A stretch of DNA of 64,000 bases from a virus (IMGVR_UViG_2889049205_000001:96001-160000), one strand, 5' to 3'; positions 7,085 to 62,735 are shown, counted from the stretch's first letter. The notes: generated by a model from the letters alone, not told the origin. Program-made: numbers and translations.

Positions 7085-7248
7085 AGAGTTCGTCATGCAC
7101 AGGACAAATCAGATTCACACACCCTTCGGGTTAACCACATGCAGCCGGCACCATCGTGCTTGCACCATGCTGTGCGGCCCCACCCATTTGCTACCCCGCT
7201 CCTCCCTCCGTATCATGACCACGCATCATTCCCCGATGCACGCACCAC

Positions 7249-7274
7249 AGGCCTGTCGGCCTCATTCATGATGA
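7249..7274 (+). promoter_or_regulatory. Hairpin promoter motif, copy 1
   Basis: AGGCC-TGTC-GGCCT CATTC ATGAT GA. Confidence 0.6.
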
Positions 7275-7545
7275 TGCAACACGACCATGAAAGCCACCAG
7301 GATATCGTCTCGCACCAGAACAGCAAACGTGGGGTAACTCAGCAATGTTATCTGCATAAAGCAGTCCATGCCCTCCCAGGGCGTGGCTGCAGGTTCACCA
7401 GTGGCATGTGTGTTGTGTGATGGCCGTGAAACGAGCAAACCTGGCGAAAGAATTTCCAGTTGCGTATAGCATGCTTATGTTATGATGGTTCTATTCGTCT
7501 TTCTTGATTATATGTTATGAGACTGTCGTGCGAGGTGCGTTATCA

Positions 7546-9959: not shown

Positions 9960-10226
9960 ATGGAGCTCACTGCTGCCTATATGGATTGTCATATCATCGC
10001 CGATGCTTATCGTATGAATCCTGGGCTTATCTATGGATTCGTCTATCAGTTTCTGGATGATCCCCCGGTCTCCTATGTAGCACGTTGCATTCGGCATGAG
10101 ACTCATTCCTATCAGCATCGTGTGTTATTCAGTGTCCAGTCGAGAAGCGTTGAGCCCCATCGTGAGCGTGTTTCTCTGTATGCTGATGCCATACATAGTA
10201 TTAAGCTGCATTGGAGGATTCCTTGA
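9960..10226 (+). CDS. MELxxxY-family small protein 1
   Basis: Starts MELTAAYM. Confidence 0.7.
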   Translation: MELTAAYMDCHIIADAYRMNPGLIYGFVYQFLDDPPVSYVARCIRHETHSYQHRVLFSVQSRSVEPHRERVSLYADAIHSIKLHWRIP

Positions 10227-10489
10227 TGGGTGCGAAGCCATTAAGACGATGCTCTTTCACCAAGGATAGTGTTAAGCATTACGCTCGCTTGCAAAGGACC
10301 GGTGATCGTTTCCCCCAGCCCGCCAGGATTGTTGTCGATAAGGAATACTTTGAGCATGTCGGCGGCGTCTATGGCATGGAGACTGTAGCCATATACGATA
10401 AAATCTATGAGGATTGGGCGTATGCTCATGCTGTGTATGATGAGATACTGCGTCGTGCTGATCCGAATAGTCTGAAGGAGTTGAAATGA
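10226..10489 (+). CDS. Hypothetical protein
   Basis: TGATG coupling. Confidence 0.6.
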   Translation: MGAKPLRRCSFTKDSVKHYARLQRTGDRFPQPARIVVDKEYFEHVGGVYGMETVAIYDKIYEDWAYAHAVYDEILRRADPNSLKELK

Positions 10490-10493
10490 TTGA

Positions 10494-10727
10494 ATGGAGC
10501 TTGCTACTGCCTACCTGGAGCATCGTTATGATCTCGTTACTGACTGCTATATAGCTTCGGGTATGGTGATTGAATTCATCTACATTCAGGTGTTCGAAGG
10601 CGAGGCTGTCCGTGGCGTATATGAGGGCATGAATGACGATGGTTATGTCATGGTCTATGATGGGGAAGGTACTGAATTCTTTGAGCTCGCAAAGATCGTT
10701 TTTGCAGAGAATGTGGGGTGGCCTTAA
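10494..10727 (+). CDS. MELxxxY-family protein 2 (small beta-barrel-like)
   Basis: Starts MELATAYL. Confidence 0.7.
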   Translation: MELATAYLEHRYDLVTDCYIASGMVIEFIYIQVFEGEAVRGVYEGMNDDGYVMVYDGEGTEFFELAKIVFAENVGWP

Positions 10728-10948
10728 TGGAGCTTGCTAGCATCTATATCCTATCGGTTCGCATCTTGGGCCGTGTTTGGCGTGCTGGTCAGAAGATCAT
10801 ATACGTGCATAAGCATATGCCCTATGGTACGGACTATGAGCAAGGAACCATCATAGCATTTAGTGCTTCAGGGTTCTACGTAAAGAATAAGTGGGACTGC
10901 AATGTCCATATTCCTTACGATATCATTGAGCACATAGTGGAGGAATGA
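10727..10948 (+). CDS. MELxxxY-family protein 3 (Sm/SH3-like)
   Basis: Starts MELASIYI; TAATG coupling. Confidence 0.7.
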   Translation: MELASIYILSVRILGRVWRAGQKIIYVHKHMPYGTDYEQGTIIAFSASGFYVKNKWDCNVHIPYDIIEHIVEE

Positions 10949-11199
10949 TCTTGGAGCTTGTTGCTGCGTATGCATCTTGTGAGGTGAAGGGAGTAAAGCT
11001 TTTTGCTGGCGACTTCATTTCATTCACCTTTCTGGGAGCTGGAGAGTTACGTGGATTCTTCCGTCGTGTTGATATGAGCCACGAGGTATTCAAGTATCTT
11101 GTCGTCGATGATGACAATAACGGCATTCCTCATCATTACCAGCTTCCCTATATATACGGGATTGAGGTTCATCCTGTCCCGTCCCGCTACCGGAGGTGA
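10945..11199 (+). CDS. MELxxxY-family protein 4
   Basis: MI-LELVAAYA; alternative TTG start at 10951. Confidence 0.7.
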   Translation: MILELVAAYASCEVKGVKLFAGDFISFTFLGAGELRGFFRRVDMSHEVFKYLVVDDDNNGIPHHYQLPYIYGIEVHPVPSRYRR

Positions 11200-11206
11200 T
11201 TAGCTT

Positions 11207-11488
11207 TTGGAGCTCGTTAATGAATACTGCTGTGTGCATCAATCGTTTATGCTTCATGATATCGAGATTCGTGTAGGTGACTATGTAGGTTTCACCTATA
11301 CTGCTCCTACGATGTCTTATGAGATATCGGGTAATGTTCATGGTTTCGATATTTCCGCCGGCCTGATGTTTATGATCATTGATGATAAGTATGCAATGTA
11401 CGGACGTTCTGCCAAGAAGCATGCCGTGTATGGATATCCTTTGGATCAGGTGAAGGATCTCTACTTTCCTGCTGGAGATGTTGATTAA
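11207..11488 (+). CDS. MELxxxY-family protein 5
   Basis: TTG start, MELVNEYC; GGAGGTG RBS. Confidence 0.7.
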   Translation: MELVNEYCCVHQSFMLHDIEIRVGDYVGFTYTAPTMSYEISGNVHGFDISAGLMFMIIDDKYAMYGRSAKKHAVYGYPLDQVKDLYFPAGDVD

Positions 11489-11829
11489 TGGAGCTTGTTG
11501 CTGGCTATATGAATAGCTTCGTTATCCCCGATCCATTGGATATGTTGCCTGGCTCTGTCTATAGGTTTGAATATACTTTACAGGATGGCACTCCTGTTTC
11601 CTTTATAGCTGAATGCATGAAGCATTGGCGCTCTGGTGGTCAGGACCGAATACAGATCCTTATCTTCTATCGCAGCGGCGGACATGGTGCCAACATCTTA
11701 TCCCTATACAGTGAAAGGATACGTAATATCCGTCTGCATTGGAATGAGTGCAAGCATAACTGGGCTCTTGATGAGAGAGAGGATAAATGCTTTTGCGAGG
11801 TCTGCGGTATATGGGAGGATGAATTATAG
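11488..11829 (+). CDS. MELxxxY-family protein 6, C-terminal CxH..CxxC finger
   Basis: Starts MELVAGYM. Confidence 0.7.
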   Translation: MELVAGYMNSFVIPDPLDMLPGSVYRFEYTLQDGTPVSFIAECMKHWRSGGQDRIQILIFYRSGGHGANILSLYSERIRNIRLHWNECKHNWALDEREDKCFCEVCGIWEDEL

Positions 11830-11981
11830 TGGAGCTTGTCTCTGCCTATATAGAGTGTAAGCATGAATATGCGCTTATCGGAACTTTTGGTCGTTCTGGT
11901 TATATGATTTATGAGTATTACTGTCCTTTGTGCAATCATACGAAAGAGGAGGTGTACTATGGACCCGACTCAGTTAACTGA
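11829..11981 (+). CDS. MELxxxY-family protein 7, 50-aa Zn finger (absent from the ORF track)
   Basis: GTG overlapping TAG; MELVSAYIECKHEY...CPLC. Confidence 0.65.
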   Translation: MELVSAYIECKHEYALIGTFGRSGYMIYEYYCPLCNHTKEEVYYGPDSVN

Positions 11982-12102
11982 ACAAATCGCTGTTGATGAT
12001 CTTCCTTTCTCCGATCCCGCTTCCCTGCTGTATAAGGAGGATCTCGAGGTAATCGATGACATGTGCGTGTGCGAGAACTATCCGTTCTGCGGCTGCATGT
12101 AG
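11959..12102 (+). CDS. Small acidic Cys-tailed protein
   Basis: GGAGGTG RBS; ends CVCENYPFCGCM. Confidence 0.55.
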   Translation: MDPTQLTEQIAVDDLPFSDPASLLYKEDLEVIDDMCVCENYPFCGCM

Positions 12103-12111
12103 GATTGCCCC

Positions 12112-12294
12112 ATGGAGATGATCCGTATGTATCTGGACCTTAGTGGTCTTGAGCTTGTCCCCTGTCCCTCGTGCAGCAGCACTGGTAAGATTAAGCGTGT
12201 TTCGTTCATTGATGGGCGTTACGTGTATTCGTATCCGCCCTGTACATTATGCAATGGTGGCGGCATTGTCACCTTGCACAGATATAGGATGTGA
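12112..12294 (+). CDS. MELxxxY-family protein 8, DnaJ-type Zn finger
   Basis: MEMIRMYL; two CxxCxxxG motifs. Confidence 0.65.
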   Translation: MEMIRMYLDLSGLELVPCPSCSSTGKIKRVSFIDGRYVYSYPPCTLCNGGGIVTLHRYRM

Positions 12295-12587
12295 CTGTAT
12301 TGGAGCTAATTGCGGAATACCTTTCTTGCACCCAGCTCTCCCGCTTTGTATTCGCCCGGTTCGGTCATAGTTATGGCTATGATCTCGGCATTCGCTTGAA
12401 GGTAGAACATACCGATTGCGAACTCGATGAAGATGGCGATTACGGCTATACCGAGTTTCATTATGGCGACCTGCGCCAGGTGACGCACCATTGGATCGTA
12501 CTGCGGGAGAGGTCTGCTGAAGGTTTTATTGACCATGTGATCAAGCGTTCAGAAATCATTGATGTTGTGTCCCAGGAGAGTGCTTAA
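12291..12587 (+). CDS. MELxxxY-family protein 9
   Basis: LELIAEYL; alternative TTG start at 12300. Confidence 0.65.
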   Translation: MTVLELIAEYLSCTQLSRFVFARFGHSYGYDLGIRLKVEHTDCELDEDGDYGYTEFHYGDLRQVTHHWIVLRERSAEGFIDHVIKRSEIIDVVSQESA

Positions 12588-12832
12588 TGGAACTGATTCG
12601 TGCTTATCTGATCGACAAGTTTGTTGTTGGCCAAATTTATTGGGTCGAGTGCGCCGATCATAACTATTCTGGCACCTATATTGGGAATCGGAGTGTGTTC
12701 GGTGATATGGCTCACGAGTTTCAAGATACTGTGCAATATAAGCGTGACAGCAAGGAGCGGATGCTACAGTCGAATGTATTGCTCTTCCCGGAGGAAATAA
12801 ATCTGATTCGCCGGCGATCCTTCGCTCGATGA
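12587..12832 (+). CDS. MELxxxY-family protein 10
   Basis: Starts MELIRAYL. Confidence 0.7.
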   Translation: MELIRAYLIDKFVVGQIYWVECADHNYSGTYIGNRSVFGDMAHEFQDTVQYKRDSKERMLQSNVLLFPEEINLIRRRSFAR

Positions 12833-12856
12833 GGCTGTCGCCTCCATTCTATTTGA
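12831..12856 (+). promoter_or_regulatory. Hairpin promoter motif, copy 2
   Basis: GAGGC-TGTC-GCCTC CATTC TATTT GA. Confidence 0.6.
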
Positions 12857-12889
12857 TGCTATACTCTACAAAGAAACGAGGTATTATCA

Positions 12890-13153
12890 TTGTCTATCAC
12901 TAATGAGCTGCCGCATCCTATTCGCCGTGGAAAGAAGCGAGTATCTGTTACAAATCCGAATGGCCGCATGTTATATCATGAGCTGCTGTGCGTGGAGTCT
13001 GTTGCATTTGAGCCTGCTGGTCGGTCCGGCCCTTCCGAGGATGGTGGCCGTACTTATCCGGTAATTGAGACGATCGGGTATGTATCCCCAGAAGCAGAGT
13101 GGTATCTGCTTGCTTGTGGCTATCGTGTTGAACCTTACGTTGGGGAGGATTGA
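12890..13153 (+). CDS. Hypothetical protein
   Basis: GAGGT RBS. Confidence 0.6.
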   Translation: MSITNELPHPIRRGKKRVSVTNPNGRMLYHELLCVESVAFEPAGRSGPSEDGGRTYPVIETIGYVSPEAEWYLLACGYRVEPYVGED

Positions 13154-13554
13154 TCATGTCCAAACTTCCACGCCGCTGGTATGATCCTCTGGCTCATAAG
13201 TTATCTGATCTATATGGCGCCCAGGTATTTGATCAACCAGGCCTTGGTAATGGCATCTTTCTGGTGAATGATAGTCTCGATCTTTATATCCGTGTTCTGC
13301 CAGAATACGGTATGACGATCGCTCGCATTGATGTCGGCGAGGGGCATACTCGCAATGGAATTGGCTCTGCTATCGTGGAATGGTGCAAGGAATTTTGCCT
13401 GCAGCATCGTATTCCCGAGCTAAAGATGGAATGTGTGCTAACGGAAGAATGTGCAGCGTTCTGTCGTAAACAGGGCTTTTCGTTGGCTCGTCCAAGTGAC
13501 GATCTGTGTTTCGATTGGGTGCTTCCGATCCCGATCCCGGAGGTGACTGTATAG
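13150..13554 (+). CDS. GNAT-family acetyltransferase
   Basis: Motif A RNGIGSAIV; FCRKQGF. Confidence 0.75.
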   Translation: MIMSKLPRRWYDPLAHKLSDLYGAQVFDQPGLGNGIFLVNDSLDLYIRVLPEYGMTIARIDVGEGHTRNGIGSAIVEWCKEFCLQHRIPELKMECVLTEECAAFCRKQGFSLARPSDDLCFDWVLPIPIPEVTV

Positions 13555-13844
13555 TGGAGCTTATTGCACATTACATTGAGCCTCGCCTGACTCCTGGCGA
13601 GCTCTATTTTATTCCGGGCATTAATCTTTCATACCGTGGAGTATATGTGGGGCCAGTTGATCAATGTGGTCAAACATTTTATGAATTCGCTCCTGCTTTA
13701 CCATTTGATCCGGAGACTGATTATATGGTAGGCCGGCAATCTATGGTGCAATTCCTGCCCTGTGAATTAGCCCTTGCCTCCCTTGTTCCTCGGCCAAACT
13801 CGTGGGAGACCTATATTAATCGCATTTATGGCGTATATGGTTAA
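13554..13844 (+). CDS. MELxxxY-family protein 11
   Basis: GTG start, MELIAHYI; GGAGGTG RBS. Confidence 0.7.
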   Translation: MELIAHYIEPRLTPGELYFIPGINLSYRGVYVGPVDQCGQTFYEFAPALPFDPETDYMVGRQSMVQFLPCELALASLVPRPNSWETYINRIYGVYG

Positions 13845-13853
13845 GGAGGCATT

Positions 13854-14129
13854 ATGGAGCTCATTTCTGAATATCTCGATCTTCTCCCCCGCCCCCTGAC
13901 GATTGCCGAGACTTGTCCAGGCGTGTTTTACCGGCTACTTATGAAGAGCACGCACGCCAATGTAAATGAGCCTGGCTGGATAACCGCCCGTGTACGCCAT
14001 GCAGATGGAGAATTTACGACGTTGTATTTCGATGCCATTAAGAACCCTGATGATTCGATCACCGAGGGCAATTTCTTTGCCACGACACCCCAGATCCTTG
14101 GGATCTATCCGTGGGAGCATACATCATGA
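13854..14129 (+). CDS. MELxxxY-family protein 12
   Basis: Starts MELISEYL. Confidence 0.7.
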   Translation: MELISEYLDLLPRPLTIAETCPGVFYRLLMKSTHANVNEPGWITARVRHADGEFTTLYFDAIKNPDDSITEGNFFATTPQILGIYPWEHTS

Positions 14130-14383
14130 ATCTTGTGCTGCATTACATAACTGTCCCGCTTCTGGATAAAGAGTACCGGCACGGTGATGAGGTTGATGTT
14201 TGGTTCACTGAGGCTAATAGAGAATGGTCTGCTCGTGGCATGATCGTCTCCTCCCATTCTTCCCCTCCCACCCTGGTAATTCGAAACCGTGTTCTCGTTG
14301 GTGAGCCGGAGGACGATTATTACCTTTACCGCATTATTCCGATCGCCATGATCACTCGTGTGGAGTTAATACCCTTCGGGTAG
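14126..14383 (+). CDS. MELxxxY-family variant 13 (Sm/SH3-like)
   Basis: MNLVLHYI; ATGA coupling. Confidence 0.65.
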   Translation: MNLVLHYITVPLLDKEYRHGDEVDVWFTEANREWSARGMIVSSHSSPPTLVIRNRVLVGEPEDDYYLYRIIPIAMITRVELIPFG

Positions 14384-14406
14384 TCGCTTACGTGATCATA
14401 CGTGAT

Positions 14407-14432
14407 ATGCCTATCGGCATGCTTCCTTGTGA
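14407..14432 (+). promoter_or_regulatory. Hairpin promoter motif, copy 3
   Basis: ATGCC-TATC-GGCAT GCTTC CTTGT GA. Confidence 0.55.
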
Positions 14433-14455
14433 TGAATACACGGGAGGCTGATGCT

Positions 14456-14843: not shown

Positions 14844-14853
14844 CGTTACCCGC

Positions 14854-14879
14854 CGGCCTGTCGGCCGCATTCCTATTGA
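14854..14879 (+). promoter_or_regulatory. Hairpin promoter motif, copy 4
   Basis: CGGCC-TGTC-GGCCG CATTC CTATT GA. Confidence 0.6.
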
Positions 14880-14907
14880 TGCAAAATTGTTGTCTTGGAG
14901 GCGTGCC

Positions 14908-15472: not shown

Positions 15473-15955
15473 GTGCATTTTACTATCCACCAATTGAAGC
15501 GGGAAGGCAACATTGAGTTTGCATTTCAGTTCCTTAGCATCTTGAAGCTGCGCAATGCCCCATTCATGGAGCACAACGAGGATCTCGATCAGTATTCTTT
15601 CGATATCGATTCCTTCAACGAGGTTTATTCTCGTGACCTGGCATCTATGGGGATCCAATATTCCGATTGTCTACTCGACTTTCACAAGCAGTCCGAACGT
15701 ATTCTCGAGGAGTTGTTCGGTATCTTCAATATGCAGATTCCTGATGATTTCAAGGGTTGGTCAATGAGCTGTGGCGATATCGTTACGCTGCAGCACGGTG
15801 AACACAAGTTTATGAAGGCATCCTACTTCTGCGATGCAGCAGGCTGGAAGCAGATCAATGTATTCAGTGGAGCTGATCGTCATGCTCAACGTGAAGAGAT
15901 CCGGGATCGGGCTCGTAAACGTCTGGCTGCTCTTCGATCCGGTACGATTCATTAA
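15473..15955 (+). CDS. YodL-domain protein
   Basis: LEELFGIFN..PDDFKGWSMSCGDIVTL...YFCD..GW. Confidence 0.75.
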   Translation: MHFTIHQLKREGNIEFAFQFLSILKLRNAPFMEHNEDLDQYSFDIDSFNEVYSRDLASMGIQYSDCLLDFHKQSERILEELFGIFNMQIPDDFKGWSMSCGDIVTLQHGEHKFMKASYFCDAAGWKQINVFSGADRHAQREEIRDRARKRLAALRSGTIH

Positions 15956-16020: not shown

Positions 16021-16028
16021 ACTTGGTT

Positions 16029-16054
16029 ATGCCTATCGGCATGATTCTATGTGA
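16029..16054 (+). promoter_or_regulatory. Hairpin promoter motif, copy 5
   Basis: ATGCC-TATC-GGCAT GATTC TATGT GA. Confidence 0.6.
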
Positions 16055-36145: not shown

Positions 36146-36679
36146 ATGGATTGCGTTTACGAGGCGGAATGCGCCAATTTCGGCCAGTGCCGGCGGTGCT
36201 TTAACCATGACATGTACAAGCCTCATAAAGAATATCAACAGCTGCGCTCCCGATCCGAAAATCGGAAAGAAGTTAAACAGGGGATGGACTTCGAGAATAG
36301 GGGCACGAAAGCTTATAATTCAGCCGTAACTCGAGCCCGTCAAGCAGCTCGCCGTCAACCAAACTCCGGAGCAATGTCTAATGCGCTCGGGGATATGATC
36401 ACCGAAGAACAATTGACCGCCTCGCTTGCGGAGTTCAAGGAGCGCTCTAGTGTAGGCGCCAAAGGCGGAAAGCAGATCACGATCAAAAAGGAATGGCTGG
36501 ATAAGCTTGCCTGGGAATCTAGGCAAATGAATCGGGACTTTTATTTCTTGCCCTTCTCATTTGCTGGAGCAGAGAAAGATTATGTGGCCATGGAATATGA
36601 TATGCTGCTTCGCTATATTCAGAATATTCAATTCCTCCTTGAACAGAATCGTTTATTGAAATTGCAACTCAATGGTTAA
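36146..36679 (+). CDS. PD-(D/E)xK nuclease / Holliday junction resolvase-like
   Basis: GMDFE, RQPNSGA, GD, EFKER, ITIKKEWLDKL. Confidence 0.6.
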   Translation: MDCVYEAECANFGQCRRCFNHDMYKPHKEYQQLRSRSENRKEVKQGMDFENRGTKAYNSAVTRARQAARRQPNSGAMSNALGDMITEEQLTASLAEFKERSSVGAKGGKQITIKKEWLDKLAWESRQMNRDFYFLPFSFAGAEKDYVAMEYDMLLRYIQNIQFLLEQNRLLKLQLNG

Positions 36680-37175
36680 TGCATTTCAACAATGGAAGGA
36701 GGAGGTGATCCTGGACGATTTCGGTTTTTATAATGCTGAGATTCGCCGCAACTTGAATAAGGAACTACACAGCCTGGTCGATCACGCTAATAGGCATATC
36801 GACCAGCGAGATGATTATCCGGCCCATGAGATCATCAAGAGCATTATTTCGCAGTACAGTGCTCGGAGATCGCTATCGGACAAGCAGCGGGTGTGCTTGG
36901 CAAAGTTCATCTTTTACATTCAACATATTCAACCTGTTCCGCCGAGAAAGAAATATTTGCAGAGACCAGTTGTGCCGCCTTCTGATCCAAAGAAGGATCC
37001 GAAATCGTTCATGTATTCTCCGTTCGGAAATCCTAACTTGGGCTCTTATGAGGTTAGAGAAGGACTTGAATTAGTGGCCGCATACATAAACAAGCAGCAA
37101 AGTACCCGCCATCAGAGTCGTGTAAACAGCATGGCAATGAGGGCCGGCCTTAGCGTACATCGTATCCAAATATGA
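36672..37175 (+). CDS. Hypothetical protein with internal LELVAAY motif
   Basis: ORF in operon. Confidence 0.55.
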   Translation: MVNAFQQWKEEVILDDFGFYNAEIRRNLNKELHSLVDHANRHIDQRDDYPAHEIIKSIISQYSARRSLSDKQRVCLAKFIFYIQHIQPVPPRKKYLQRPVVPPSDPKKDPKSFMYSPFGNPNLGSYEVREGLELVAAYINKQQSTRHQSRVNSMAMRAGLSVHRIQI

Positions 37176-41368: not shown

Positions 41369-42187
41369 ATGAGTGACATTGAAGAATCGATCTCTGAGCG
41401 TCAACATATGCGCTTTATCGGGGTCACAAAGGACGCCACCACTGCCGGGCCAGGGAAACGGCTAGAGCTATTTCTCAAGGGTTGCATCCGTGGGATTGTT
41501 AATCCTTGCGAAGGTTGCTTTAACCCATCGACATGGGAGTTTGGCGGCGATCGCAAGCGCATGCACATCAATGAAGTTGTCGAGATGATCGATCGTGATG
41601 CCTGGAATCGTCAGGTGACGTTCTGCGGCGGTGAGCCATTGCTGCAAACACGCAATCTGATTGAAGTTTGCAGGGAACTCAAGCGCCGTGATCCTCGGAT
41701 ACATATCGTCGTATACACCGCATATCTGTTGGAGAATCTGCTCTCCCAAGGAGTCTTTTATCGACTGCGTGGAGGCGACGAACCTGCTGTTCAAGAGACG
41801 TTATTATCCTACAGCGCCCATTGGAATCCGGAGCTTACGCATTTTCAAATTGCGACTGCGGATCAGATCCGAGAGCTCATGGGAACCATTGATATTTTGG
41901 TTGATGGCGACTACCAATCGAAGCACCGGATTCCAACCGAGAAATACATGAACGAAGGCATGTTCATTGGGTCGAGCAACCAACGGGTGATCGACACTCA
42001 GGAAACGCTTCGCTGGGCGCCGCAATTCGTGTTCGACTATGCGGATGTTTGGATGGAGAAGCACCTTATCAAGAAGCATTGTAAATGCTGCGGCCATCCT
42101 ATCAACAATCGTCAGTTCACGTACTGCGACAGTCGTTGCCGCAAGGCATTTCATAAACGCCAGAAAGACATTGCGGTTTTCCGATAA
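41369..42187 (+). CDS. NrdG-like radical SAM protein
   Basis: GPG.R..LFLKGC-x7-CEGCFNP, GGEPLLQ, DILVDGDY, GSSNQRVID; C-terminal Zn ribbon. Confidence 0.85.
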   Translation: MSDIEESISERQHMRFIGVTKDATTAGPGKRLELFLKGCIRGIVNPCEGCFNPSTWEFGGDRKRMHINEVVEMIDRDAWNRQVTFCGGEPLLQTRNLIEVCRELKRRDPRIHIVVYTAYLLENLLSQGVFYRLRGGDEPAVQETLLSYSAHWNPELTHFQIATADQIRELMGTIDILVDGDYQSKHRIPTEKYMNEGMFIGSSNQRVIDTQETLRWAPQFVFDYADVWMEKHLIKKHCKCCGHPINNRQFTYCDSRCRKAFHKRQKDIAVFR

Positions 42188-43377: not shown

Positions 43378-45033
43378 ATGACTACCGCCGCCGCTTCAAT
43401 GCTTGTATCCGGGATGGAAGAGATCCAAATCCTTCTCAATTCCCGCCGCCGTTTGATCCTTGTTCAAACCTACGAGGAGGAAAGATTCACTGAGGACATG
43501 AAGTCCTTGATCGAGGCCCGCAGCTACAAGGGCTTATCCTGGACCGCCAGCTCTGGATTGCGTGACGTTATTACCCGTGAGCCGGCTAAGGAGCAGATGA
43601 CTGATCCAATCAAAATGCTACAGCACATCATGGATACTAAAGATCAAACCGTATTTATTCTGAAGGACTTCCATGATATCTGGGACAACAAGATGGCCAA
43701 GCGTAAGCTGCGTGACGTCATTGAATGGCCAGACAACATGTATAAGCCGATCATCATTGTTGCGCCGCAATGCCAGATCCCGACTGAGCTCGAGAAGCTG
43801 GTGACGTTGGTAAAATATGACCTCCCAGATCGCAGGCGGGTGACAGAGCACCTCGAAAGCCTGGAGGCCTATTTGCAATCGAAAGATCTGGCCTTACCAA
43901 CAGGCCGGGAACGGGAAGCGATTATCAACGCTTTGGTCGGCATGACGGATTCGGAAGTCACGAACGTCTTGAAGAAGTCCGTCGCTAAACACAAAGCGAT
44001 CGTACTGGCTGAAATCGTGGCCGAGAAGGAGCAGGTGATCCGGAAGACCGGACTGCTAGAGTACATCACCAAGCTGGGCGACATGGGTAATGTCGGCGGT
44101 ATGGATGTAGTGAAAAGCTGGCTGACCGATGCCTACTTCGCCTTTGATCCGGAGGCCCGCAACTTCGGCGTCGATCCGGTTCGTGGGGCGGTACTGGCAG
44201 GATGGCCAGGCGCCGGTAAGTCACTGTTCGCTAAAGCCACAGCATTCATGTGGAACCTTCCCCTACTCAAGATGAACATGAGTGACATCATGGATTCTCG
44301 TGTCGGTCAATCCGAAAAGAACATCGCCAGGGCGTTGAAGCTCGCAGAGGCGGTTAGCCCATGTGTGCTATGGATCGATGAGCTGGAGAAAGGTCTTGCT
44401 GGCATCGCATCTTCGGACAAGTCCGATTCCGGCACGTTGTCTCGTGTCGTTCAAGAGCTGCTGACGTGGCTCTCCGAGAAAGAAGCGCCGGTATTCGTTA
44501 TCGCCACGGCGAATGATGTGACGAAGCTTCCTCCGGAGCTCACTCGTGCCGGCCGATTCGATGAGGTATTCTTTGTTTCCTTGCCTCATGACAAAGAGCG
44601 GGAGCAGATCCTTTCGATCCACCTGCAGAAGCGTGGCTACCAGATTGTTGACACGGTTCCGGAAATCGGATCCGGCAAGTTCTCGGTTGTAGAAATTGCT
44701 GAACTGGCCAGTCGGATGAAAGACTTTTCCGGTGCAGAAATCGAGCAAGTGGTTGCCGAGTCTGGCCGCCGTGCGTATGCCTCGTTCAAGAAGAACGAGC
44801 GAACAGTACACCACATTCAACCGGAGGATTTGGTATTCCAGATCGAAACGATCGTTCCGCTGGCTAAGCGTAATCCACAGCTGCTGGCAGATCTGCGGAA
44901 CTGGGCAAAACATTCTGCGAAGTGTGCGTCTTCCGAGGAGCACAACTTCTTGCACAAGGACTATAAAGCAGAGGGGAAATCGAAGCTTCGTGTCATTGGC
45001 GGCGGCTTCGAAGACCTTGATCTTGAAAACTAA
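43378..45033 (+). CDS. Ycf46-like AAA+ ATPase
   Basis: TYEEER, ILKDFH, GWPGAGKS, WIDELEK, ATAN, RAGRFDE, FSGAEIEQ. Confidence 0.9.
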   Translation: MTTAAASMLVSGMEEIQILLNSRRRLILVQTYEEERFTEDMKSLIEARSYKGLSWTASSGLRDVITREPAKEQMTDPIKMLQHIMDTKDQTVFILKDFHDIWDNKMAKRKLRDVIEWPDNMYKPIIIVAPQCQIPTELEKLVTLVKYDLPDRRRVTEHLESLEAYLQSKDLALPTGREREAIINALVGMTDSEVTNVLKKSVAKHKAIVLAEIVAEKEQVIRKTGLLEYITKLGDMGNVGGMDVVKSWLTDAYFAFDPEARNFGVDPVRGAVLAGWPGAGKSLFAKATAFMWNLPLLKMNMSDIMDSRVGQSEKNIARALKLAEAVSPCVLWIDELEKGLAGIASSDKSDSGTLSRVVQELLTWLSEKEAPVFVIATANDVTKLPPELTRAGRFDEVFFVSLPHDKEREQILSIHLQKRGYQIVDTVPEIGSGKFSVVEIAELASRMKDFSGAEIEQVVAESGRRAYASFKKNERTVHHIQPEDLVFQIETIVPLAKRNPQLLADLRNWAKHSAKCASSEEHNFLHKDYKAEGKSKLRVIGGGFEDLDLEN

Positions 45034-57242: not shown

Positions 57243-57998
57243 ATGGAACTGATTACAGCTTATTTATATAATCAGTCGCCCATCGATGTATTTAACATCA
57301 TGGAATCGACATTCAAAAATATGACCTCATCGAGGTGGTTCGAGGAAGAACGTCAACCGAAGAATTTCAAGATCATGAACAAACGATTCAAGGTTGCCGA
57401 TGTCGTTTACCGGGTTGTTCTGCGATTCCGCTTGGATACGCCAGGAGTTTACACACTCGATACGCCTATCCCATTTGCAGTTATGCTCTCGGAGCGGTAT
57501 GAGGTCGAAAAAGCGCACGGGACGGAATCCCGTTACAAAGACGTCAAAGTATGGCACAGCAAGGAAATGAAGAGCACGATCGGCTACTTCCAGGCGGGAG
57601 TTCCCGTAGTGCTGATTAATGAAGTCATTGATGATCTTAAAACGGTGATTCAACATGTTGATGCGCCAGAGGTCGATATCGATCTTTACTCGGCGCAGCG
57701 ACGACCAATCCGCATGTTTTTGGGTGGCCAAGAGATTGGGGAGGTCCAATCGGTTTCAATCACGCCTGAGCGAGATATTAACGGGCGGCCGGTCCGCCGT
57801 GTGAATGTGCTTGGCGGTGGGGATATTTCAGCTGCTCTTGAAGCGGACGCTATCGCTCTCATTCGTCGTGAAATAGGGGTCGGCGTCGCAGAGGCAGAAC
57901 GCCTTTTTCATCGGCTTATCGGCAGCGCAGACATCGGAGAAGAAGCTATTTTAAGATCGATTCGAAATTACATGGACGATACGGAGGATGAGTCGTAA
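57243..57998 (+). CDS. MELxxxY-family protein 14 (large)
   Basis: Starts MELITAYL; GGAGGTG RBS. Confidence 0.65.
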   Translation: MELITAYLYNQSPIDVFNIMESTFKNMTSSRWFEEERQPKNFKIMNKRFKVADVVYRVVLRFRLDTPGVYTLDTPIPFAVMLSERYEVEKAHGTESRYKDVKVWHSKEMKSTIGYFQAGVPVVLINEVIDDLKTVIQHVDAPEVDIDLYSAQRRPIRMFLGGQEIGEVQSVSITPERDINGRPVRRVNVLGGGDISAALEADAIALIRREIGVGVAEAERLFHRLIGSADIGEEAILRSIRNYMDDTEDES

Positions 57999-62200: not shown

Positions 62201-62565
62201 CGCTGGCCAAGCGCCTGATGCGTGAAGGAACGCTGGACGGAGTGGACTCTATTGAAGATCGCTGGAAGCGAATCAATGAGGCTCGTGATCAAAGCATGCA
62301 GAGCGTGATGAATTTCGGTTACGAGTCTTATGATGAGACCGTCATGAATCCGCTCGGTCTTGAAGAAGTGCGCCGCATTGCACAAGGCATGATCGCATCC
62401 AAGCAAGCCGACTTCGCTGCCGGCAAGATCTCCGCAGAAGCTCTGGACGATTACCTCAAGCACATGGAAGACATGATGCTCTCGATCCAAGATGCCTCGA
62501 AGTACAACAAGGGGTTGCGCAAGAAGGATCGTGTTATCGAGGGTCAAATCGCCTTTTCGTTCTAA
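59263..62565 (+). CDS. Large SNF2-like helicase with Zn insert
   Basis: CEMGTGKT, DEVHEYK, LTGT, GLDL, QSCRRSWRI. Confidence 0.85.
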   Translation: MGTLRSTELYKLEIFGRGFHEQAFCDLLVLDMRRNVRNVYLANVMSTDIRVKSLAANMQEVRTGRIVRAEGNEKESLHKNEITNIYIHEKNFFHVHDSKVDDLLQMMFVAKNARPNVKDRQDWQAEEEQRLQNGESPRRAPEELILAWDGDFKKTIYQVLNDRYNTPMLEDWQEYIVDTLIADHFYSPLEVRCYGREHALEAGLLSITERQLEEIITQGILAQEIYFDPSGSNLMSDGRSEDEGILKDCNGLDDYLTHFAGALGSRIQENTALRFDPMRDRHSEAFYDVNLHANQRGITGLFPPQADTVMGAAKTLIDDRYVFLVCEMGTGKTVMGEVLPYITEAIDQAKRNPDPFRTIVFVPTIMVSKWMREIQDRIPGAKVIEIKSYRDIIPLQHAPYKPETIEYYVMSSDVAKADYPIVPVENWRERKGDAKQSREEGKKARLALHKSEFYADGHLREYVMSGDTGFYCPDCGQPLKVGKGRNEKMSDVNFYKTRNSSGKMVYDRKVANAYCTNLVATKYMPSHRIKTPGKQMHACGYNLWQPMPLKDKSLNRKVSPAWFINNRLRRGFFKYLIADEVHEYKSGDTDRANAFGQLVNHTTKQILLTGTLLGGQASDLFYLIARLDSRRLKREGITYNDINGFIERYGVFEHKFRMVDDWEGASLANTASQTRKKSGRSEKPGVSPQVFSRFLISNCAFLELSDLAQALPRYREEPIFVEMHPDHLAAYRDLEEQVGSQMRSNVAQGGMKHVSTYVNRIYQYADMPFNQSPITYYDDQGRQRTLATPINFSSDDLIPTKYNALTNMIDAQIRRERKTMVYCRFTGVNPVDLYLYNKLKAEGYNVGILRSSGKDYDGLTMPKQEDREKWLRQMMDKNGWDVLITNPRLVSVGLDLLDFPTIVYYQMDYSTYNYMQSCRRSWRIKQTKDVEVYTLVYQETMQADVLNHIAKKIDAALALQGKFSEEGLRAMAETGDGINALAKRLMREGTLDGVDSIEDRWKRINEARDQSMQSVMNFGYESYDETVMNPLGLEEVRRIAQGMIASKQADFAAGKISAEALDDYLKHMEDMMLSIQDASKYNKGLRKKDRVIEGQIAFSF

Positions 62566-62735
62566 TGGAGCTGGTCCAGACTTACTTCAACAAAGTTCCT
62601 ATTCTGTTTACTGGCCGGATTCGGGTGTATGCTGTCATATGCCCGAAGTGCCGGCGGTGCGAATATGAAATTGAGCCCGGCCCGGTTGAAAAGTGTTATC
62701 TCTGCTATCTGGATGACTTGAAAGACGGTGCATGA
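62565..62735 (+). CDS. MELxxxY-family protein 15, 56-aa Zn ribbon (absent from the ORF track)
   Basis: TAATG coupling; MELVQTYF...CPKC...CYLC. Confidence 0.6.
   Translation: MELVQTYFNKVPILFTGRIRVYAVICPKCRRCEYEIEPGPVEKCYLCYLDDLKDGA

Follow-up and report, generated by a model that had tools for sequence, protein, structure and literature searches.

Why should 13 small, closely packed genes of a phage all begin with variants of one eight-residue peptide? The question is raised by the window analyzed here, a 64,000-nt stretch of viral DNA (bases 96001-160000 of the 228,841-bp contig IMGVR_UViG_2889049205_000001, hereafter C3), in which an array of open reading frames (ORFs) at 9960-14383 opens again and again with the motif MELxxxY (Table 1; positions are those of the window unless prefixed C3). 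The peptide is specific to one phage lineage, strictly N-terminal, under selection at the peptide level and independent of the protein body that follows it, and it looks like an undescribed address label. We put the probability that it is a modular N-terminal address tag on unrelated cargoes at roughly 0.55.

An Array of Small ORFs With a Common N-terminal Octapeptide

The 13 ORFs lie on the + strand, and each carries the N-terminal peptide that a first-pass annotation, made from the sequence alone, had listed for it. All 13 fit the pattern [M/L/V]-E/N-L/M-[VIAT]-x-x-Y-hydrophobic at an ATG, GTG or TTG codon, with Shine-Dalgarno bases of the GGAG/GAGG type found 6-13 nt upstream of every start. 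The preceding stop codon is overlapped (TAATG, TAGTG or ATGA) by six of the starts, and two others lie within 5 nt of one. When the window was scanned in six frames with the regular expression [MLVI]-[EN]-[LM]-[VIAT]-x-x-Y-[MLIAC], 15 matches were returned, 14 of them on ATG, GTG or TTG codons and 13 of these in the array, compared with a mean of 0.11 and a maximum of 1 motif start in 100 shuffles of the window. Two further members in the window, one of 251 aa and probably one of 56 aa, had been missed by the first-pass annotation.

The enrichment extends over the whole of C3, a tailed-phage genome with a G+C content (GC) of 50% that was found alongside the 7.05-Mb chromosome (55% GC) of a spore-forming bacterium and a 246-kb contig, C2. 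Motif starts number 24 in C3 (105 per Mb), as against 7 in the chromosome (1 per Mb) and none in C2. Start codons underlie 24 of the 27 six-frame matches in C3, which indicates that the peptide marks N-termini and not helices in general. About one gene in 12 is tagged (a crude gene call gave ~283 genes), and MEL is the commonest N-terminal tripeptide, with 29 occurrences against 6 for the runner-up.

The tagged genes occupy two non-structural blocks of C3. One comprises the array, which lies downstream of a gene for a 1227-aa polymerase whose relatives carry the Pfam family RdRP (PF05183), together with two genes on the polymerase's other side. The second, at C3 184-197 kb, lies among replication genes; those encoded by C3 include Pol III alpha-like, Cas4-like exonuclease, RusA-like, ribonucleotide reductase, RecA, UvrD, primase and ThyX proteins. 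The head module (terminase, portal, protease-like and major head protein) is found at 72-89 kb, and an endolysin and a 422-aa putative scaffold are also encoded.

Selection Acts on the Peptide

The composition of the tag was examined in 65 distinct tagged proteins from eight phages. Methionine at position 1 and tyrosine at position 7 occur in all 65, as the collecting pattern and start-codon filter demanded, and position 2 is E in 61, N in 2 and D in 2, where only these three residues were allowed and the informative part is the 61:2:2 split. Position 3 is L in 58, M in 6 and I in 1; position 4 is V in 28, I in 21 and L in 8, with others making up the remainder; position 8 is L in 36, I in 12 and M in 9, again with others; and position 9 is D, E or N in 36. 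Across these proteins all six leucine codons are used at position 3, Glu2 is encoded by GAG in 38 and GAA in 23, and Tyr7 by TAT in 47 and TAC in 18, a synonymous spread indicating that selection acts on the peptide.

Synonymous variation had also been claimed for the array itself, and here the picture is divided: the variation lies mainly between phages, and the tag DNA differs rather little from gene to gene within C3. The Glu2 codon is GAG in 20 of 22 C3 tags, against 53% genome-wide (p = 3e-4), and TGGAGCTY occurs in 10 of the 13 array genes, whereas in the related Alicyclobacillus contig described below (G001) the same codon is GAA in 12 of 14 tags (p = 5e-3). This homogenization within genomes points to exchange among the stretches that encode the tag, by recombination or conversion, and such recombination would, it is suggested, also move or renew cargo cassettes. 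The GGAG within the tag was considered as a Shine-Dalgarno sequence for a downstream start, and this was rejected because there is no suitably spaced start codon and G001 uses GAA.

The Tag Is Independent of the Protein Body

A tag-plus-cargo arrangement, with the internal proteins of phage T4 as its model, had been proposed for the array. The octapeptide does behave as a module of its own, independent of the body; the link to T4 stays an analogy. The members are not all full-length paralogues, as shown both by BLASTP and hhalign comparisons made without the tag and by the distinct folds behind it (terminase ATPase, Tad2-like, barrel and Zn-ribbon). With residues 1-10 removed, BLASTP among the C3 proteins found likeness only between #1 and #6 (E 2e-15) and, weakly, between #4 and #5, and the 65 tagged proteins without their first ten residues fell into at least 34 sequence clusters. 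Paralogy holds for a subset: #2, #4, #5 and #13 align as one barrel family together with many proteins of the relatives, and #1/#6 and #10/#11 form pairs. Profile comparison without the tag added no further array member to the family of four.

Recognized domains begin past the tag, at residue 38 for Terminase_6N, residue 65 for the Tad2-like domain and residue 19 for the PHROG profile phrog_6115 in a tagged Zn-finger protein, so that the linker between tag and domain varies in length by more than 10 residues. Proline occurs at positions 11-16 in 38% of tagged proteins and 24% of other small proteins (p = 0.02). In two AlphaFold models, of the tagged ATPase and of #4, the predicted local distance difference test (pLDDT) score is 61 and 62 over the first ten residues, compared with 84-97 in the bodies; the tag is thus the region modeled with the lowest confidence and yet forms the most conserved columns of the alignments. 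This combination would be expected of a short linear motif that folds on its partner, although it is not proof of one.

The clearest case is the terminase-type ATPase, a stand-alone protein of 237 aa with no nuclease domain, which is conserved in every relative and adjoins the tagged Tad2-like protein and an Alp7A-like actin gene. Its AlphaFold2 (AF2) model (pLDDT 87.9) matched D6E, T4 gp17 and P74-26 TerL in Foldseek (E 3e-8 to 1e-6, TMq 0.55-0.6), and its score against Pfam Terminase_6N, 18.9 bits, is below the cut-off of 22. An exhaustive HMMER search found 18 homologues, 11 of which start with MEL, MDL or VEL..Y at 23-36% identity; positions 1, 2, 3 and 7 are kept in these 11, in a family whose mean column identity is 28%. 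The two most distant homologues are tagless, with a shorter N-terminus. These come from ~80-kb low-GC phages in which the gene lies among tail genes, and in the one such locus that was read there was no tagged ORF.

The Tag Follows One Polymerase-Bearing Lineage

Homologues of the C3 polymerase, 34-77% identical, occur mostly on ~200-kb contigs, and the tag is present in at least nine related ~200-kb phages that have the same RdRP-like polymerase and 35-55% GC. Among them is G001, a complete 198-kb contig from Alicyclobacillus shizuokensis with a polymerase 38% identical to that of C3, in which the DNA pattern DTG-GAR-YTN-N9-TAY had 17 matches against 4 for the control, again in arrays. Six metagenomic loci of 15-24 kb around the polymerase contain two to eight tagged ORFs apiece, with Shine-Dalgarno sites, and two more distant contigs (35-39% GC) are likewise tagged.

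The nearest cultured relative, Moorella phage MTATph1 (OR602862.1), has 61 genes in common with C3, among them genes for the head, the tail and replication. A polymerase homologue is missing, none of its 238 crude gene calls is tagged, and the DNA pattern gave one match against five in the control, making it a useful natural negative control. Pattern scans of the phages Tsamsa and SP-15 likewise gave no enrichment of the tag. A YonO-like polymerase has been ascribed to Bacillus phage 0305phi8-36 (PMC7824862), in which the tag is not enriched and no similarity to the C3 polymerase was detectable, so its virion proteome is of no use here; no cultured member of the lineage with virion proteome data was found. 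The polymerase was not found in 400 genomes of the host's order, a scan of genome contigs returned only that of A. shizuokensis, and the INPHARED phage collection had no match for the array (megablast), the polymerase or the 251-aa tagged protein (tblastn). Among the genomes that could be checked, the tag occurred only with the polymerase. No model for the tag was found in Pfam, PHROG or NCBIfam, and a literature search aimed at the T4 capsid-targeting sequence (CTS) gave nothing on this lineage.

Genes common to C3 and G001 and missing from MTATph1 number 45, the polymerase among them. Three lie in the head module, encoding a 423-aa protein between terminase and portal and, beyond the major head protein, proteins of 190 and 690 aa; others are a 2307-aa protein, tail-fiber genes, an NrdG-like radical-SAM protein and a methyltransferase-like/SNF2 pair.

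Predicted Folds of the Cargoes

Searches of the 13 array proteins against Pfam and PHROGs gave nothing above cut-off and no WYL, LSM or Hfq match. Fold prediction with AlphaFold and Foldseek, which the first-pass annotation had recommended, yielded confident models of the barrel (#4) and of the terminase-type ATPase. Its guesses of Sm/SH3-type barrels and Zn fingers were borne out in part: #4 and #6 give Sm/WYL-like models, and #8 has two CxxCxGxG motifs that stay below the Pfam cut-off. The small beta-barrel modeled for #4 resembled the WYL domains of DriD, BrxR, CapW and PafBC as well as Hfq/LSm (Z 5.5-7.2; Foldseek template-modeling (TM) scores of 0.5-0.58), and the Atlas model of #6 matched WYL clusters over residues 14-87 (TM 0.52-0.55). 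Because these Z-scores fall in the middling range of the tool and come with no hidden Markov model (HMM) support, the bodies are called Sm/WYL-like only; a profile search with the barrel alignment returned lineage members only.

Among the other cargoes, the 146-aa Tad2-like protein matched PF11195 over residues 65-124 (29.6 bits, cut-off 25), further bodies are Zn-ribbons or, in G001, helical proteins, and an Atlas search with the 251-aa tagged protein, which lies upstream of genes for a DUF6094 methyltransferase-like protein and an SNF2 helicase, gave no usable match. The tagged cargoes are probably counter-defense or take-over proteins.

What the Tag May Do

If the peptide is an address tag, M-E-L-[V/I/L]-x-x-Y-[L/I/M], often followed by D, E or N, would be a self-contained docking peptide at a free N-terminus, placed and retained on many unrelated accessory proteins of one ~200-230-kb Bacillota phage lineage, that carrying the RdRP/YonO-like single-subunit RNA polymerase. 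The hydrophobic positions 3, 4, 7 and 8 would lie on one face of a two-turn helix, or supply the P5, P4, P1 and P1' side chains of an extended strand, and the surface so formed would fit a pocket of one common partner, by which ~25 cargoes per genome would be handled alike. That a single partner reads the tag is what we infer from this.

Where the partner resides can be said only tentatively. Our leading guess is that it forms part of the assembling head, in which case the cargoes would enter the procapsid and be passed on together with the DNA; we consider this possible and think the odds are against it. The idea comes from the T4 CTS, the only described precedent for diverse defense-related phage proteins with a shared N-terminal tag. 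Capsid loading would link the tag, the lineage-specific head-module genes and possibly an injected polymerase. In its most far-reaching form, which we regard as similarly doubtful, a lineage-wide eight-residue code would deliver ~25 counter-defense or take-over proteins per genome to one destination, most plausibly the procapsid for injection with the DNA, and would have arisen together with the phage's own polymerase and the three head-module genes. The reader may instead be a host hub, a protease or the phage polymerase.

Several observations weigh against these proposals. Of the array members, four to six are genuine paralogues sharing an Sm-like fold, which classically begins with an N-terminal helix, and the low pLDDT of the tag only weakly supports its being free. 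A destination in the capsid sits poorly with the position of the tagged genes, which are found in the block downstream of the polymerase and in the replication block and not in the head module, and with the mostly acidic character of the tagged proteins (median isoelectric point 5.3). There is no fixed protease site after the tag (D or E stands at position 9 in 30 of the 65), the terminase-like ATPase and a cargo with a C-terminal membrane helix would be odd passengers, and the polymerase itself is untagged. Finally, no common partner was found among the subtilase, AAA ATPase and radical-SAM proteins that we weighed by conservation and gene position.

Alternative Explanations

The subtilase bears on a first alternative, in which the peptide would be a degron or processing site and a regulon of early or accessory proteins would be cut or destroyed at a set time, either by an AAA+ protease of the host or by an intracellular subtilisin-like protease of the phage. 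In C3 and in G001 alike, the second tag cluster is followed directly downstream by a gene for an S8 subtilisin-like protease of 300-316 aa with no signal peptide (60% identity), the motif is strictly N-terminal, and conserved positions 4 and 7 with variable positions 5 and 6 would fit recognition of P4 and P1 in the S4 and S1 pockets of a subtilisin. Proteins 40-50% identical to this subtilase occur in MTATph1, Tsamsa-like phages and SP-15, and homologues are found in many ~200-250-kb Bacillus and Paenibacillus contigs. The subtilase was rejected as the reader since in MTATph1 this protease is present with the gene order unchanged and yet no gene is tagged, and the tag is not enriched in Tsamsa or SP-15 either. 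The AAA ATPase of the phage fails as well, having no homologue in G001, and we know of no ClpX, ClpC or N-end-rule motif that resembles the tag. A degron or processing site therefore seems unlikely.

It could also be that there is no common reader and that the peptide is simply the first helix of an expanded Sm/SH3-like barrel family, copied by recombination at coupled gene junctions and either harmless or an aid to folding. The barrel family speaks for this, as do the resemblance of #1 and #6 to WYL/Sm barrels and the codon homogenization, which shows DNA exchange between tags. On the other hand, the non-barrel ATPase and Tad2-like orthologues keep the tag across phages that range in GC from 35 to 55% and have no more than 35-40% identity between their polymerases, where a passenger would have decayed like the remainder of the protein. 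Moreover, in the AF2 model of #4 the tag is left unpacked on the barrel and is helical only at residues 5-7, and good Sm/WYL structural alignments mostly begin at residues 10-14, past the tag. We rate a structural helix without a reader as quite unlikely.

A third possibility is an expression or recombination cassette, in which a standard initiation region (Shine-Dalgarno sequence, start and first codons or nascent peptide) would serve re-initiation while its DNA likeness lets cassettes shuffle. A 42-nt repeat family does cover the Shine-Dalgarno sequence and the first eight codons, and the six overlapped stop codons and the uniform codons within a genome would fit. Between phages, however, the nucleotides change while the residues stay, Tyr7 and the hydrophobic residue 8 included, at a distance of 18-24 nt from the start of the gene; the same coupled operons contain untagged genes, and isolated tagged genes with their own Shine-Dalgarno sites retain the tag. 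We consider a cassette very unlikely as an explanation of the peptide.

Least probable is a signal for N-terminal modification, in which the GNAT protein of the array would carry out NatB-like acetylation or the lineage-specific radical-SAM protein would modify Tyr7. In its favor, residue 2 is E, N or D as in the eukaryotic NatB substrate class (the only residues that the collecting pattern admitted), a GNAT gene is present in the array, and the NrdG-like gene is shared with G001 and not with MTATph1. Against it, the Pfam families listed for the syntenic loci in six relatives include no GNAT, the score of the radical-SAM protein is that of a glycyl-radical activase (NrdG, 87.8 bits, which is under the cut-off), its gene is far from both tag clusters, and conservation of positions 3, 4 and 8 is left unexplained. 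The same two properties, likeness to NrdG and lack of linkage to the tag clusters, led us to drop the radical-SAM protein as a lead. It has a C-terminal treble-clef, and its gene is followed by that for a 374-aa orphan; both are kept in G001 and absent from MTATph1.

Neighboring Features and Stray Copies of the Motif

A conserved hairpin with a GC stem of 4-5 bp and the loop T[GA]TC, followed by (C)ATTC and in many cases by TTGATGC, occurs in ~9 copies on the + strand of the polymerase-downstream block and also in the syntenic block of G001 (Table 1). For the phage polymerase it may serve as a promoter or a processing site. The idea that it marks a transcription class to which the tagged genes all belong was rejected, because it is confined to the polymerase-downstream block, with none at the second tag cluster.

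Only once in the window does the motif recur in frame in the interior of an ORF, as LELVAAYI on a CTT codon at 37065, inside the ORF at 36672-37175 and 36 codons ahead of its stop; this could be chance or a captured short cassette. In the second block, a 66-aa tagged ORF at C3 196433-196630 (- strand) has another tag copy, IELVAAYL, at residue 46 on an ATT codon (C3 196495), and VELVSAYL on GTA (C3 196172) precedes an open frame of 106 codons; such copies could be starts that have decayed or are near-cognate, or else cassettes that have fused. The ends of C3 (1-17 kb and 212-229 kb) share genes, with identical products of 817 and 351 aa and the same motif match at 15868 and 227639, indicating ~17 kb of terminal redundancy and a unique genome of ~212 kb.

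Table 1. Tagged ORFs and other features discussed in the text (window positions unless prefixed otherwise).
Feature	Position	Strand	Evidence
Hairpin copies	7245-7279, 12827-12861, 14403-14437, 14850-14884, 16028-16054; C3 116136, 120494, 125214, 158958	+	
Tagged ORF #1, 88 aa, MELTAAYM, paralogue of #6	9960..10226	+	BLASTP without the tag, E 2e-15
Tagged ORF #2, 77 aa, MELATAYL, Sm/WYL-like barrel family	10494..10727	+	Family alignment, profile comparison
Tagged ORF #3, 73 aa, MELASIYI, start overlapping the stop of #2	10727..10948	+	
Tagged ORF #4, 82 aa, TTG start, ELVAAYA, beta-barrel	10951..11199	+	AF2 model, pLDDT 86.5 overall, tag 62
Tagged ORF #5, 93 aa, TTG start, ELVNEYC, barrel family	11207..11488	+	Family alignment, profile comparison
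Tagged ORF #6, 113 aa, MELVAGYM, WYL-like barrel at residues 14-87, Cys-rich tail	11488..11829	+	Atlas model
Tagged ORF #7, 50 aa, GTG start, ELVSAYI, small Cys-containing protein	11829..11981	+	
Tagged ORF #8, 60 aa, MEMIRMYL, two CxxCxGxG motifs (DnaJ-type Zn finger, below Pfam cut-off)	12112..12294	+	
Tagged ORF #9, 95 aa, TTG start, ELIAEYL, acidic, no relatives found	12300..12587	+	
Tagged ORF #10, 81 aa, MELIRAYL, same cluster as #11	12587..12832	+	
Hairpin GAGGC-TGTC-GCCTC, then CATTC..TTGATGC, dividing the array into two units	12827..12861	+	
Untagged GNAT acetyltransferase gene within the array, stop overlapping the GTG start of #11	13150..13554	+	
Tagged ORF #11, 96 aa, GTG start, ELIAHYI	13554..13844	+	
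Tagged ORF #12, 91 aa, MELISEYL, then LPRP linker	13854..14129	+	
Tagged ORF #13, 85 aa, MNLVLHYI, barrel family	14126..14383	+	
NrdG-like radical-SAM gene	41369-42184		
AAA ATPase gene	43378-45033		
Tagged ORF outside the array, 251 aa, MELITAYL	57243..57998	+	Tag kept in G001 orthologue
Probable tagged ORF, 56 aa, MELVQTYF, Cys-rich, start overlapping the SNF2 gene stop	62565..62735	+	
Tagged terminase-type ATPase, 237 aa	L026:8047-8757 = C3 94044-94757	-	
Tagged Tad2-like protein, 146 aa	C3 95353-95793		
S8 subtilisin-like protease	L028:12728-13675 = C3 192725-193675	-	

Significance and Comparison With Known Systems

Beyond the T4 internal proteins, there is hardly any description of a phage that marks many unrelated proteins with a short terminal address label. 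A lineage-wide tag of eight N-terminal residues offers an experimental handle for finding its reader, and it flags ~65 orphan proteins, whose targets are probably the host or its defenses, including stand-alone WYL/Sm-like barrels and a Tad2-like protein. The homogenized tag DNA suggests a way in which phages might keep a renewable, shuffled arsenal behind a constant label, and if the destination is the capsid, chosen proteins could be loaded into the particles of Gram-positive phages.

Among known systems, N-end-rule and ClpX N-motif degrons resemble the tag in that a free N-terminus is recognized on many unrelated substrates by one reader. The MEL sequence differs in fitting no bacterial degron class that we know of, and the subtilase link failed the phylogenetic test. 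As for the cargoes, #2, #4, #5 and #13, and probably #1 and #6, are alike in fold to Sm, LSm and WYL barrels; at 75-115 aa they stand alone, without the helix-turn-helix domains of WYL regulators. A parallel to the tag itself is provided by the encapsulation peptides of PduD, PduP and EutC, in which an N-terminal amphipathic helix and a poorly conserved linker precede unrelated enzymes and one structural reader is addressed. Those peptides differ in being ~18 residues long, with no fixed sequence or distance from Met1.

The likeness to the CTS of T4 (IPI, IPII, IPIII and Alt) lies in a short peptide at the extreme N-terminus of otherwise diverse small proteins of one phage lineage, and in both cases the genes are found in variable loci. 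In T-even phages the internal proteins are highly diverse defense proteins in which only the CTS, which places them in the scaffolding core, is conserved (PMC3012670). The MEL tag differs in having no conserved protease cleavage site after it, and the tagged genes are more numerous (~25 per genome), encode mostly acidic proteins and include an ATPase. The host here is also Gram-positive, and the head is of another lineage, with HK97-like protease matches (the prohead-protease-like gene of C3 encodes 484 aa and has weak PHROG matches). If delivery by a lineage-wide code of this kind is real, it would amount to protein delivery of a general and programmable kind, with the T4 CTS as the only example described so far.

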